Shown here: positions 9,646-37,179 of the stretch, piece by piece
How positions within the stretch are numbered: position 1 is the first letter of the stretch
Layout of the letters: the number at the start of each line of letters is the position of its first letter
Virus record (IMG/VR): IMGVR_UViG_2706795974_000001
Coordinates: 9,753 to 73,752 of that record
DNA from: a virus
Lineage: Duplodnaviria > Caudoviricetes
Length of the DNA: 64,000 bases
Strand: one strand, 5' to 3'
Program-made: the position numbers and the translations under genes
The notes under the pieces: model-generated
What the model was told of the DNA's origin: nothing
What the model saw: the letters and a program-made list of their open reading frames with translations, nothing else
Databases searched by the model: none

Positions 9646-10665
9646 ATGGGTGTCAGTTCACAGCAGGGCGTCTTCGCTCTCAAGACCCAGACCGCACGCG
9701 GAGTCACAGCCACCGACATTGGCACGACTGGTGTCGCCATGTACCGCACCGGCGGCTCGATGACCCCGAACCGCGAGCTGATGATCCCCGACGCGGAGAT
9801 CGGCGGAGGCCGCGACGTCCCCGACGCACTGCTCGGTCCCATCTCGTTTGGCGGTGACATCGAGTTCTACACTCGATTCACCTCTATCGGTGTTCTACTC
9901 AAGGCCGCGCTCGGTGCGCCCGTCTCGGCTGCGGGCACCGCTACCGGCACGACGGTTCACACCTTCACCCCAACCGACGCGACGACCTTGCCGTTCCTGA
10001 CGGTGTACGAGCGCATCGGTGCGGATCTGGAGCGCATCCTCTACACCGACTGCGTGGTCAACACACTGCACCTCGAGTCGGATGCAGATGGCTACCTGAC
10101 CGGCACTGCTGGCCTCATCGGCTGCCGTGGTCTGTTCGGTACGCCGGATGTGGATGTCTCGGACGTGCTGGACGAGACCACCATCACGGTCGGTACCAAC
10201 ATCCAGGTGCTCTACGACTCGGCCAACATCAAGCCGAAGTCGTTCAGCATCGACATCAACAACAACTTCGAGGACGACGACTTCCGTCTCGGTTCGTTCT
10301 ACCTCGAGGACCTCACGCCGAAGCGTCGTGAGATCAACGGGTCTCTCACCCTGCGCCACGAGACCAAGGACCTCATGCGGCAGGCGCTGCTTGGTTCTTC
10401 GTCCGCGACTCAGGCCGGCGGTCTCACTACGAAGAAGCCGATCAAGATCGTTATCTCCACCTACGGCGAGATTCCCGACTCCGATCCGGCAACGCCGTTC
10501 GGTCTCGAGCTGGAGTTCCCCGAGACCGTGTTCGAGCCCTTCGGCTTCGAGCCCTCGGGTGACGACATCCTCGAGTCGGATGTGACTTTCCAGGCGGTGC
10601 GCCCCGTCTCATCGACCCCGGTTATGACGGCGACGCTGACCAACGGCGCTTCTGCCGTGGTCTAA
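9646..10665 (+). CDS. Major tail (tube) protein
   Basis: 339 aa with biased codons; HTFTPT...PFLTV, DCVVNTLHL and SFSIDINNN..RREING are tail-tube motifs. Confidence 0.85.
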   Translation: MGVSSQQGVFALKTQTARGVTATDIGTTGVAMYRTGGSMTPNRELMIPDAEIGGGRDVPDALLGPISFGGDIEFYTRFTSIGVLLKAALGAPVSAAGTATGTTVHTFTPTDATTLPFLTVYERIGADLERILYTDCVVNTLHLESDADGYLTGTAGLIGCRGLFGTPDVDVSDVLDETTITVGTNIQVLYDSANIKPKSFSIDINNNFEDDDFRLGSFYLEDLTPKRREINGSLTLRHETKDLMRQALLGSSSATQAGGLTTKKPIKIVISTYGEIPDSDPATPFGLELEFPETVFEPFGFEPSGDDILESDVTFQAVRPVSSTPVMTATLTNGASAVV

Positions 10666-10742: not shown

Positions 10743-10814
10743 TGGTCCGTAGCTCAATGGCAGAGCGCCCGACTGTTAATCGGGTGGTTGAAGGTTCGAG
10801 TCCTTCCGGTCCAG
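10743..10814 (+). tRNA. tRNA-Asn(GTT), CCA not encoded
   Basis: D arm AGCTCAATGGCAGAGC; anticodon arm CCCGA-CT-GTT-AA-TCGGG (GTT at 10775-10777); T arm GAAGG-TTCGAGT-CCTTC; acceptor stem with one T-T mismatch; discriminator G. Confidence 0.92.
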
Positions 10815-10863
10815 CTATACAACTGAATAAAGAAGTCAACTAAGACCAGTGAAAGGGTCACCA

Positions 10864-11457
10864 ATGACACACGCAGGAATCCCCACCCGCGAGCAGGACA
10901 CCTCGGACTTCGAAGGTCGGCCCGAAGCGGAGCGCGCCAATGCCGCCGCACTGGCTGCGGGCGAGGTTGTCGAGGAGAAGCAGTTCGTTGACTACTTCGC
11001 GGCCCCGCTCCCGCAGCGCTGGTACCTGCCGGACGGCGTTCAGTACTTCGAGTACCAGGAACTCCGCGAGGGCGGCAAGGCTGCCTACGAGAAGCTGACC
11101 AACAAGGACATCCGCGTTCAGCGCTCGACCGGAGACGCTCGCCTGTCGGTGGACCCCGCGATCCAGCGACAGTCTCTGATCCGCCTGTCGGTCACCGACG
11201 TGCACCTGATCCAGAAGGACTCGGGCGGTCGCCCGCAGGTGGTGCCCTTTAACAAGGAGCGCCCGGGCAAGTTCTGGGATAACCTGTTCACCTTCTTTCC
11301 GGCCGTGCTCATCGACAAGCTCCACCAGGAGATCGTGAAGGCCAACTCCTGGCTGGCAGCCGACGACGACGTCGAGGCGCTGAAGGAAGAGCGCGAGCGC
11401 CTTGACGAGCGCATCCAGCGCGCCGAGGAGGAGCAGGCAAAAAAGCTCTCCTCGTAG
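10864..11457 (+). CDS. Tail assembly chaperone (gpG equivalent)
   Basis: Lies between tail tube and tape measure; ends ...AKKLSS. Confidence 0.85.
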   Translation: MTHAGIPTREQDTSDFEGRPEAERANAAALAAGEVVEEKQFVDYFAAPLPQRWYLPDGVQYFEYQELREGGKAAYEKLTNKDIRVQRSTGDARLSVDPAIQRQSLIRLSVTDVHLIQKDSGGRPQVVPFNKERPGKFWDNLFTFFPAVLIDKLHQEIVKANSWLAADDDVEALKEERERLDERIQRAEEEQAKKLSS

Positions 11458-34307: not shown

Positions 34308-35510
34308 CTACTCCTTGATAAGCCTCGGCACCACCTTGGGCCGGGGTTCGCCGATACTCTCTCGGACTGACGAGCGCAACCTTGACTTCTGGATGGGAGT
34401 CAAGGCGTTGCCCTTCAGCAGCTTATCGACTTCGCTGTTGTTAATCTTTCCCATCGAAGAGAACAGATTATCACCAATGATCTCGCGCACCGTTGCCGGA
34501 TCATAAGACTTGCGCCGGGACGACTTGAACGCAACGTGGAAGTTCTCCGTGTCGAACTCGATCTCGTCAGACTCAATGGCGGACTTGAGGAGTTCTTCCT
34601 GGACTTCCTCGATGGCTTGCCTGATTGCCTTCTGCGCACCTTCGAGTTCTGCATACCGGCGAGCCATTGCGTCGCGGTCGCCAGCCAGCATCATAATTCC
34701 GCCCGCCTCAATGTTCTTTGTGAGCTCAGGACAGGTTGCTTTGACCGGGCAGAACTGGCACTCCGAGTTGAGCGTGCGCTTGCCAGGCTCTGGCTCAGCG
34801 ATAATACGCTCAGCAACCTTGCGGATGTACTTCCAAGTTGCAACGTTGTCGTCGCGTGTGAACTTCACTTCGACTGGGTCGTAGCGGAGCTGATCGAAGC
34901 AGACCCAAATCTCATCGGGGTTGAGCTCGAAACCCAGCTCCTTCTCGATCTCCTTCTTGGCTAGCATGATTGCCATACCATAGAGTCTGCCCTGCGGCTT
35001 CTGTCGAAGTGCTTCGGGGGTGAGGTGCTGTCGCCAGGTCTTGTAGTCCACAATGCGAACGATGGACTTTCCATCTTCCTCGAACCGATCGAGCCGGTCG
35101 AAGATGAAGGTGTAGGGCTTAGGTCCTGCCGACGTCTTGATCTCCACTTTAATCTTGCGCTCGACCATGAGCACCTCGACGTTTTCGAGTTGGGTGCGCT
35201 GGAACCAACGCTCCAGCATCTCAATTCCGTCTGCGTACCAAGGGTCTTTGGGGTCGGGCACCCGGTTGAACTGCTTCATGAAGTTCTGCTTAAAGAACGC
35301 CACGATGTCCGGCCAGTCCATGTCGTGAGTCTTGTCGATGTGCGCGCGCTGAACGATGATCTCCAGCGTGTCGTGAACCGCGGTGCCCAGACGCGCTGGC
35401 TCTGAACTACCTCCTGGGGTGGGCACGCGGTCAACCATCTCGACCTGGTACCGATAGGTGCAGCCCTCGAACACCTGGATGGACGATGCCGAGATGGATC
35501 GAAGTTCCAC
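34308..35510 (-). CDS. Cas4/RecB-like PD-(D/E)xK exonuclease
   Basis: SASSI..F..C, GTAVH, FDRLD, IVDYKT, Q..Y and CQFCPVKATCP (Fe-S staple). Confidence 0.9.
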   Translation of the reverse strand: MELRSISASSIQVFEGCTYRYQVEMVDRVPTPGGSSEPARLGTAVHDTLEIIVQRAHIDKTHDMDWPDIVAFFKQNFMKQFNRVPDPKDPWYADGIEMLERWFQRTQLENVEVLMVERKIKVEIKTSAGPKPYTFIFDRLDRFEEDGKSIVRIVDYKTWRQHLTPEALRQKPQGRLYGMAIMLAKKEIEKELGFELNPDEIWVCFDQLRYDPVEVKFTRDDNVATWKYIRKVAERIIAEPEPGKRTLNSECQFCPVKATCPELTKNIEAGGIMMLAGDRDAMARRYAELEGAQKAIRQAIEEVQEELLKSAIESDEIEFDTENFHVAFKSSRRKSYDPATVREIIGDNLFSSMGKINNSEVDKLLKGNALTPIQKSRLRSSVRESIGEPRPKVVPRLIKE

Positions 35511-35923
35511 TACTTGGCTCCTCTCTTAGTGGTTACGCCGCCCCAGATTCCGTCGGTCGAACCAGTGCGCTCGCGGTAGTCGAGGCACTCCTGTCTTACT
35601 GGGCAGCTCATGCAAATCTTCTTCGCGCGATTGGCGCGGGCCGCTTGTCCCCGGCCAGGGAAGAATGCGTCTGGATCGTGGTACCCTACACAGAGGGCGC
35701 GCTCGGTCCATTCTTCGGGGATGAGACTGAAGGAGGCTTGGGGCCCGGTGTCGCCGGGGCTTCCGAACTCTTCCCCTTCTCCGCAGTCGCAGGCTTCTCC
35801 GGTCCTGTCGGGTCGAAGAGAGAGGGCTGCGCAGATTCCGTTGCATCTAAAGGGCGGCGCCCCCCGCGCATTTCGAGCTCGAATGCTGTGGTTGGTTCGC
35901 CCTCTCCGAACAGCTCGCTGGCG
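35510..35923 (-). CDS. whiB: WhiB-family transcription factor domain in a frame lacking ATG/GTG/TTG
   Basis: EWTERALC...DPDAFFP...AKKICMSCPVRQECL...GIWGG; its TAG (35510-35512) overlaps the GTG of the nuclease; not in the ORF track. Confidence 0.85.
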   Translation of the reverse strand, partial: RQRAVRRGRTNHSIRARNARGAPPFRCNGICAALSLRPDRTGEACDCGEGEEFGSPGDTGPQASFSLIPEEWTERALCVGYHDPDAFFPGRGQAARANRAKKICMSCPVRQECLDYRERTGSTDGIWGGVTTKRGAK

Positions 35924-36108
35924 TCACGCTCGGCGTCGGTCTTGGCGTTGCTCTCGTTGGAGAAGGCCGTCTCCTGAAGGTGCGACTCGAAGGCCGTTTG
36001 GGTCGGTGCCTTCGCTCGAAAATCCTGGAACCCCTCCTGATCCATACCTCCGCGGATCGGGTGCATCTCGTCGGGCCCAGCCGGGCGCTTGAATTGCTGT
36101 TCAGTCAC
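35686..36108 (-). CDS. Hypothetical protein; probable N-terminal partner of the WhiB frame
   Basis: GTG with RBS AAGGAG; contains in-frame C-CCT-TTA at 35854-35848. Confidence 0.6.
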   Translation of the reverse strand: MTEQQFKRPAGPDEMHPIRGGMDQEGFQDFRAKAPTQTAFESHLQETAFSNESNAKTDAERDASELFGEGEPTTAFELEMRGGRRPLDATESAQPSLFDPTGPEKPATAEKGKSSEAPATPGPKPPSVSSPKNGPSAPSV

Positions 36109-36140
36109 AGTGACTCCTTGACGTCGGTGGTGGTGCTAGG

Positions 36141-36302
36141 TCACGATACCATGACGGGCACGGCATCGGGCCATCGGTTAGCGCGCCGGTCGCGGGTAAT
36201 GAAGTCGAAGAAGTACTCGTCGAATAACTCTGCGATCATTACTGTCGCTCGGTGCTCGATCTTGGTCCACCAGTGCTTGCGGTGCTTGCCGTTACGCTTC
36301 AT
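36141..36302 (-). CDS. Small hypothetical protein (53 aa)
   Basis: MKRNGKHRKHWWTKIEH...; ATG directly follows the upstream TAG. Confidence 0.5.
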   Translation of the reverse strand: MKRNGKHRKHWWTKIEHRATVMIAELFDEYFFDFITRDRRANRWPDAVPVMVS

Positions 36303-36437
36303 CTACAGCCTTCCCATCTTGATAAGTCGAACTATCTCGAACACTCCGAGCTGCCTCCAGCCCTTCATTCGCTTCCAGTATGACCCGCAGACGGGGCACT
36401 TGACTACCGTGCCCTCGCCTGCGGACTCACTGCCCAT
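36303..36437 (-). CDS. Small CxxC protein (44 aa)
   Basis: MGSESAGEGTVVKCPVCGSYWKRM...; TAG abuts the next ATG. Confidence 0.45.
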   Translation of the reverse strand: MGSESAGEGTVVKCPVCGSYWKRMKGWRQLGVFEIVRLIKMGRL

Positions 36438-36459
36438 CACCACCGAGTCGCAGCATTCC

Positions 36460-37179
36460 CTAGAGGTCGGCGAACAGGTCATCGCCTTCGCTCTCTAGCT
36501 TTCGTGCTGACGCTTCGTACCGCGCCGGATCGAGCTCGATGGCAACGGCATTTCTACCACAGTTCCGAGCCGCTCGGACGAGACTCCCCGACCCTCCGAA
36601 GGGGTCCACAAGGAAGGCACCCTCCTTTGTGGAATGCCTGATAAGAATCTCAAGCAGAGCCGTCGGCTTTTCGTGCGGATGGATGAGCTGATTCGGCCTG
36701 AGCTGCGGGATATGTAGTACACCGTTGCGCCGCTTGGCATATCGAGGCGCACGACCCTTCTTGAAGTACAGGATAAACTCGTGACCCTGACCCCACGACT
36801 CCAGATCGCCCATGCCAGGGCCATCCTTCTCCCAAACGAGGACAGCCTTGCGGTTGAACCCGAACTGGGGGGCGAACTCGTCGAGCATGACCAGCCAGTC
36901 CGAGAGAACCTGATACGAAGTGAACACGTAAAGGTCGGAGTGCTCCTTCGTCTTGGGCAGGAGGACTGACATGACATCCTTGAAGACCTTGATGGCGACC
37001 TCGGGGCTCTCATCATTAGCGATCTTTGTGGCATACTTCTTTCCGGCCTCGGTCACTGCCATGTTCGACAGGTTATCGACACCAAAGGGCGGGTCTGTGA
37101 TAATGCAGTCCACCGACCCTTCTTTGAAGCGCTGGCAGAGCTCAACAGAATCGCCCTGCCAGATCTGATGTACTTTCAT
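36460..37179 (-). CDS. DNA amino-methyltransferase (N6A/N4C, beta class), orphan
   Basis: GDS, IITDPPF (motif IV), HPHEKP and LVDPFGGSGS (motif I). Confidence 0.9.
   Translation of the reverse strand: MKVHQIWQGDSVELCQRFKEGSVDCIITDPPFGVDNLSNMAVTEAGKKYATKIANDESPEVAIKVFKDVMSVLLPKTKEHSDLYVFTSYQVLSDWLVMLDEFAPQFGFNRKAVLVWEKDGPGMGDLESWGQGHEFILYFKKGRAPRYAKRRNGVLHIPQLRPNQLIHPHEKPTALLEILIRHSTKEGAFLVDPFGGSGSLVRAARNCGRNAVAIELDPARYEASARKLESEGDDLFADL

Follow-up and report, generated by a model that had tools for sequence, protein, structure and literature searches.

A conserved slippery heptamer and a probable programmed −1 frameshift into a WhiB domain in Gordonia and Tsukamurella phages

Background

In insertion sequences of the IS3 family (IS911, IS150, IS3), an in-phase X XXY YYZ heptamer within a short ORF, OrfA, leads to its fusion with a −1 ORF that has no start codon of its own, giving OrfAB, as is known in the field (PMC13313380, PMC4066793). 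Two products with a common N-terminal domain result, and the long one bears the functional domain. It is likewise established that a −1 frameshift in Escherichia coli dnaX sets the ratio of two products of one gene, tau and gamma; there it is the shorter product that arises by shifting, with Shine-Dalgarno (SD) and hairpin stimulators at the site. Annotated programmed frameshifts of tailed phages are almost confined to the tail assembly chaperone gene, where the G/GT shift (lambda, actinophages) is conserved in position. WhiB-like (Wbl) proteins, among them WhiB1-7 and the TM4 phage WhiB (structures 8dy7, 5oay and 6ono), are built around a domain with four Cys and a G[IV]WGG turn.

The locus described here appears to combine features of these systems. 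By analogy with OrfA/OrfAB, an in-phase heptamer in a short ORF would fuse that ORF to a startless −1 frame, the two products would have the same N-terminal domain, and the longer would carry the functional domain. It differs from IS3 elements in that the product would be a phage regulator rather than a transposase, that C CCU UUA takes the place of A AAA AAG/A as the heptamer, and that neither a pseudoknot nor a hairpin nor a conserved SD-like stimulator was found at the site. As in dnaX, a −1 shift would set the ratio of two products, and as in G/GT the phage site is conserved in position. Unlike the G/GT site, it belongs to the early/replication arm, where a DNA methylase and a Cas4-like nuclease are its neighbours; it uses another heptamer, would add a transcription-factor domain, and is unannotated in all eight records examined. 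The C-terminal 62 residues form a full Wbl domain with the four Cys and the G[IV]WGG turn; unlike known Wbl proteins, this one has no initiation codon of its own and would add an unrelated 87-aa N-domain and an invariant C-x3-C...C-x-C-G-E-G motif, which would define a new Wbl architecture. The −1 mechanism itself is textbook; the gene class is new for it. The phage would thus have a second programmed frameshift, in a regulatory gene, and would offer a simple and testable example of recoding in the high-G+C Actinobacteria, a group whose frameshift signals are little known.

Methods

The window is the whole stretch of DNA that was analysed (64,000 nucleotides, positions 9,753 to 73,752 of IMG/VR record IMGVR_UViG_2706795974_000001); coordinates refer to it, and the features of the locus lie on its minus strand. 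The phage part of the comparison set comprised Montyvirus (CS2), GTE7/GMA7 (CS1), Demosthenesvirus/Kvothe (CS4) and Tsukamurella phages TIN2-4. The metagenomic part comprised three contigs reached through ORF1 homologues and seven more distant ones reached by searching an N-domain profile against 1.84 billion proteins. A pattern scan of IMG/VR matched nine contigs, all already in the set. The lowest identities in the set were about 43% for the N-domain and 52% for the −1 part.

The phase of substitution was followed in seven gap-free CS2/CS3 sequences by counting variable columns at each codon position of the −1 frame, position 1 of which is the wobble position of the zero frame.

Results and discussion

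By sequence comparison, the region shares 99.9% identity with Gordonia phage Teal and 21 other Woesvirus genomes, a group named cluster CS3 by Pope et al. 2017 (PMC5559632). In minus-strand order, the genes are a DNA methylase (37179-36460), small ORFs, ORF1, the WhiB frame, and a 400-aa Cas4-like PD-(D/E)XK exonuclease (34308..35510). No promoter-like or terminator-like sites were found within 35300-36500.

ORF1 (35686..36108) encodes a zero-frame product of 140 aa from a GTG at 36108 to a TAG at 35688-35686. As originally predicted, the ORF has a strong ribosome binding site: AAGGAG can be read directly at 36114..36119, 5 nt 5' of the GTG. A conserved 85-aa N-domain (35852-36108), marked by DFR, three T-A/G-F motifs and GGR, is followed by a tail rich in P, S, T, K and E. 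The tail, which had been described as low-complexity, is poorly conserved and variable in length (about 50-85 residues past the shift site); its conservation was no better than that of a non-coding frame. The three spaced T-A/G-F-E/Q motifs of the N-domain (QTAFE, ETAFS and TTAFE) are kept in all lineages and look like repeated short binding motifs. Relatives of the N-domain outside its own family were found neither in Pfam nor in the ESM Atlas (best score 0.83) nor with the profile against 1.84 billion proteins; a match to that profile in a 1533-aa protein (P0014) was spurious, the protein being a repetitive Y_Y_Y/Ig protein. ORF1 is a member of phrog_6890 and carries the RefSeq/PHROG label 'endonuclease', as do RefSeq relatives L004-L007. 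No nuclease domain or motif was detected in it, and a Pfam search relaxed to E 10 matched nothing; the label seems to have been propagated without support.

Relative to ORF1, the WhiB frame is the −1 frame; it stays open from 35923 to a TAG at 35512-35510, in agreement with the original prediction of a complete WhiB motif between these positions. Its last 62 sense codons (35525..35710) make up the WhiB domain, with the pattern C-x25-C-x2-C-x5-C followed by GIWGG, and match Pfam PF02467 (E 3e-17, 63.4 bits against a cut-off of 23.6) and the PDB WhiB chain 8dy7_H (4e-15). The cluster cysteines C55, C81, C84 and C90 were invariant in 16 sequences. In the GIWGG turn (residues 102-106), G102, I103, W104 and G106 were invariant as well, and G105 was replaced by A in 2 of the 16. 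The frame had been reported to contain no ATG, GTG or TTG; this holds upstream of the domain, but one such codon, the only one in the frame, is present inside it (ATG 35609..35611, the M of ICMSC). That ATG is the start of a 33-aa CDS in GenBank relatives, the product of which has two of the four cluster Cys.

Between the heptamer and the WhiB domain, the −1 frame encodes a linker (35711..35848) unmatched to known families. It has four invariant Cys codons (35845-35843, 35833-35831, 35791-35789 and 35785-35783), the last directly followed by G-E-G (35782-35774). The resulting motif, C-x3-C, a variable spacer of 13-41 residues and C-x-C-G-E-G, was present in 16/16 sequences. Across these 16 sequences (down to 52% identity), C4, G6, C8, G19, C22, C24, G25, E26 and G27 were invariant, the four extra cysteines that the original prediction had pointed out being among them. 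The motif had no match in Pfam or the PDB. A SPASM-like assignment of the stretch from Atlas clusters (0.83) was rejected since the score was within noise. AlphaFold2 models of the Cys4-WhiB part reached a pLDDT of 44 with 10 sequences and 58 with 16, the extension staying below 50 and thus at low confidence. The Cys4 motif is probably a second metal site, perhaps for Zn or Fe-S.

The slippery heptamer, C CCT TTA (35848..35854), had been proposed as an in-frame cgC-CCT-TTA, and its bases are indeed ORF1 codons in the X XXY YYZ phase (Pro86 CCT, Leu87 TTA). The window holds four copies of C CCT TTA against 2.1 expected, so presence alone means little, and the significance of the site comes from in-phase conservation in diverged relatives. 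Both the heptamer and the split frame are kept in such relatives. The split-frame arrangement is common to about 80 public Gordonia and Tsukamurella phage records, and it was found in each of the four CS subclusters and the Tsukamurella TIN phages, as well as in ten metagenomic lineages. Every locus consists of ORF1, an overlapping −1 frame ending in the WhiB domain, and the Cas4-like nuclease, except that contig L038 breaks off before WhiB. No homologue with both parts in a single frame was found. One candidate for a WhiB with an extension, LilPharaoh (H38), was rejected as an ordinary 89-aa WhiB.

In-phase C CCT TTA was present at 17 phage loci (CS1-CS4 and TIN) and at 8/10 metagenome loci (L039, L040, L052-L054 and L056-L058), amounting to about 15 diverged lineages. 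The other two metagenome loci have variants: C CCT TTC in L038 and, at the equivalent place in L055, an in-phase A AAC CCT that sits 6 nt past the opening of its −1 frame. Within 1905-2015 of L038, an ENA contig with 1.8x coverage, the phage locus switches abruptly to an opposite-strand bacterial gene of the dihydrolipoamide-dehydrogenase type. The contig is probably a chimeric assembly, and at this coverage its CCCTTTC variant counts as weak evidence. Depending on the lineage, the zero-frame codon preceding the heptamer specifies R, L, A, T, V or P, and its last base is always C. At the C CCT TTA loci, the Pro codon is always CCT, which makes up 12% of Pro codons, and the Leu codon is always TTA, the rarest codon in the phage (about 0.55 per 1000; a rough gene call puts it at about 10 in 18,000 codons). 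Constraints of this kind appear to act at the nucleotide level and are those expected for tRNA re-pairing.

The position at which a ribosome would have to change frame can be narrowed further. A stop codon leaves the −1 frame open for only 3 nt ahead of the heptamer in L053 and 6 nt in L054; in all CCCTTT lineages the distance from the heptamer start to the first invariant Cys codon is 9 nt; and a canonical start upstream of the Cys4 motif in the −1 frame was found in no lineage. Taken together, these limits would leave ribosomes about 12 nt in which to enter the −1 frame, a stretch that coincides with the heptamer and pins the shift site. The same observations weigh on the possibility that the WhiB frame is translated alone, from a near-cognate start or by re-initiation, with the heptamer incidental. 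Rare ATC, ATT and CTG starts do occur in bacteria, and a GTG or ATG directly precedes the WhiB domain in the CS4 phages of the Kvothe group (L005:1423-1623) and in JGI contig L057 (L057:1695-1898), which could make a stand-alone WhiB of 66-67 aa besides the fusion. However, any such start would come after the invariant Cys4 motif, whose first codon is 9 nt past the heptamer start, the closed −1 frame of L053 leaves no room for a ribosome binding site and a start, and the alignment contains no conserved near-cognate codon there. Re-initiation would also lose the first WhiB Cys, which precedes the ORF1 stop. Since the heptamer and the Cys4 motif are still conserved in CS4 and L057, the fusion itself appears to be selected. 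Independent translation of the WhiB frame is very improbable as an account of the locus.

Substitution patterns indicate which frame is under selection. In the 252 nt before the heptamer, variable columns were distributed 55/17/16 over positions 1/2/3, with the excess at the zero-frame wobble position. The counts were 11/11/16 in the 168-nt overlap and 2/3/26 in the WhiB-only part, where the −1 wobble position takes nearly all of the change. The phase of substitution changes from the zero to the −1 frame at the heptamer. Within the overlap, the −1 frame of the seven CS2/CS3 sequences had 14/56 variable residues, compared with 20/55 for both the zero frame and the untranslated +1 frame. A wider frame-aligned set pointed in the same direction, with synonymous/non-synonymous values of 0.40 in the −1 frame versus 0.24 in the zero frame, and BLOSUM scores were higher in the −1 frame in 10/10 lineage pairs. 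G+C by codon position in the overlap (0.67/0.64/0.58) was flat and does not favour the −1 frame. The comparison of lineages thus demonstrates, at the level of sequence, the site, the switch of frame and purifying selection on the −1 frame.

These data also bear on whether the annotated 33-aa ORF from the ATG at 35611 is the sole product, with the WhiB part upstream of it a decaying relic. The gene is called in this form in 6/8 of the GenBank/RefSeq relatives examined, and PHROG 11832 is made up of such stubs. Against this, the stub is without 2/4 of the cluster Cys, there is no Met at that position in CS4, L040, L052, L054, L055, L056 or L057, and purifying selection in the −1 frame is strong upstream of the ATG (2/3/26; invariant YHDPDAFFPG). 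A relic of this kind is extremely improbable.

A further alternative is that the −1 change arises by transcriptional slippage, or by an assembly or sequencing indel, rather than on the ribosome. C3T3 is a short double homopolymer, and the evidence examined consists of contigs rather than raw reads or RNA. Across three studies, the assembled contigs of four sequencing runs (two at 159x and 434x coverage, one a food-fermentation metagenome) nonetheless had no indel at the site. The check for an indel that had been proposed thus came out negative in four independent assemblies, to which 22 near-identical independent genomes can be added, and the arrangement is identical in about 80 records and in metagenomes. 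Transcriptional slippage requires runs of about 7 or more A/T, and the X XXY YYZ form, relevant only to tRNA re-pairing, is retained in the variant heptamers. An origin at the RNA level or in an indel is accordingly given almost no weight.

The preferred reading is a real, conserved programmed −1 frameshift yielding a 199-aa N-domain/Cys4/WhiB fusion, to which we assign a probability of about 0.88 on comparative grounds. The original prediction had named this heptamer as the site of such a shift, and it gains support from the conservation, the pinned entry window, the phase switch, the invariant Cys and the intact sequence at the site. The proposed transframe CDS is join(36108..35848, 35848..35510), spanning 35510..36108 on the minus strand (87 + 112 = 199 aa). 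Ribosomes would start at the ORF1 GTG at 36108, and most would probably stop at 35686 and release the 140-aa protein made of the N-domain and its poorly conserved tail. A fraction would slip back one base on C CCU UUA (35854-35848) and read on to the TAG at 35510. The resulting product would contain 87 codons of ORF1 and 112 codons of the −1 frame, beginning with AGA at 35848-35846, and would consist of the N-domain, the C-x3-C...C-x-C-G-E-G motif and a complete WhiB [4Fe-4S] domain. In this phage, frameshifting would be the only route to a full WhiB domain, and the only complete WhiB domain that the phage has would depend on it. That the slip takes place on the ribosome, that the ratio of the two products is important and, as originally suggested, that the amount of the regulator is tuned in this way, we infer.

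Two forms of slippage would give different junctions. The likelier is a tandem −1 slip of tRNA-Pro (CCU to CCC) and tRNA-Leu (UUA to UUU), with the junction ...RRP-L-RC.... Alternatively, slippage might occur in the P site only, with the A site empty and awaiting a scarce tRNA-Leu(UAA), which would give ...RRP-F-RC.... The junction originally written, ...RRP-F-RC..., fits this second form but not classical tandem slippage, for which L takes the place of F.

No codon is rarer in phage and host than UUA, which a scarce bldA-type tRNA-Leu(UAA) reads. As a very rare A-site codon, it may promote the slip by pausing, but such a pause cannot be general because L038 and L055 are without UUA. Slippage would be expected to rise when that tRNA is limiting, and on this basis the frameshift could be regulatory rather than fixed in ratio: a fusion with two metal sites would report the physiological state of the host, and the short product would compete with it. 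We consider this regulatory extension unlikely. The phage has no tRNA-Leu gene.

Elements that might stimulate the programmed frameshift were sought around the heptamer. A single-sequence fold of the downstream RNA indicated no structure (z = +1.66), and a consensus fold of eight sequences downstream of the heptamer had an energy of −1.65 kcal/mol with no covariation and no conserved hairpin or pseudoknot. There was no Rfam match at the frameshift locus. An SD-like GGNGG is located 5-6 nt upstream of the heptamer in cluster CS phages, L040 and L057, and is absent in most of the more distant metagenome lineages. In E. coli, C_CC.U_UU.A is among the heptamers that are shift-prone without stimulators, and C_CC.U_UU.C is listed as a highly efficient frameshift heptamer (Sharma et al. 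2014, PMC4066793).

None of the eight GenBank/RefSeq records examined annotates a frameshift at the WhiB locus. The 33-aa stub, named 'WhiB family transcription factor' or 'hypothetical protein', is present in six; two have no WhiB CDS, and one record has a WhiB-like CDS of 66 residues. Because the WhiB gene is annotated as a stub or missing, surveys of actinophage regulators and gene-family tables are wrong for this phage group. Full-text searches found no literature report of a WhiB made by frameshifting. Frameshifting is absent from the text of a phage WhiB gene survey (PMC8612146), and a WhiB frameshift is unmentioned in the PRFect paper, in the Gordonia phage overview (PMC5559632) and in the CS genome announcements.

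At its 3' end, the WhiB frame runs into the nuclease gene. As had been noted, its TAG (35510..35512) overlaps the nuclease GTG (35510-35508), the two codons having a G in common. The stop overlapped or abutted the nuclease start in the window and in 6/6 relatives whose junction was read (L008, L012, L014, L015, L039 and L040). The junction reads TAGTG in the window and ATGA in the TIN phages, and an AGAGGAG Shine-Dalgarno sequence lies within the WhiB tail. Translation of the nuclease may be coupled in part to frameshifted ribosomes.

Elsewhere in the window, a single tRNA gene, tRNA-Asn(GTT) (10743-10815, plus strand), is located directly upstream of the tail assembly chaperone gene (10849-11457, plus strand). 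The chaperone gene contains an in-phase A AAA AAG at 11439-11445, and its −1 frame runs on to about 11732, directly before the gene for the 3322-aa tape measure protein. This A AAA AAG is the expected G/GT frameshift site, and its heptamer differs from that of the WhiB site.
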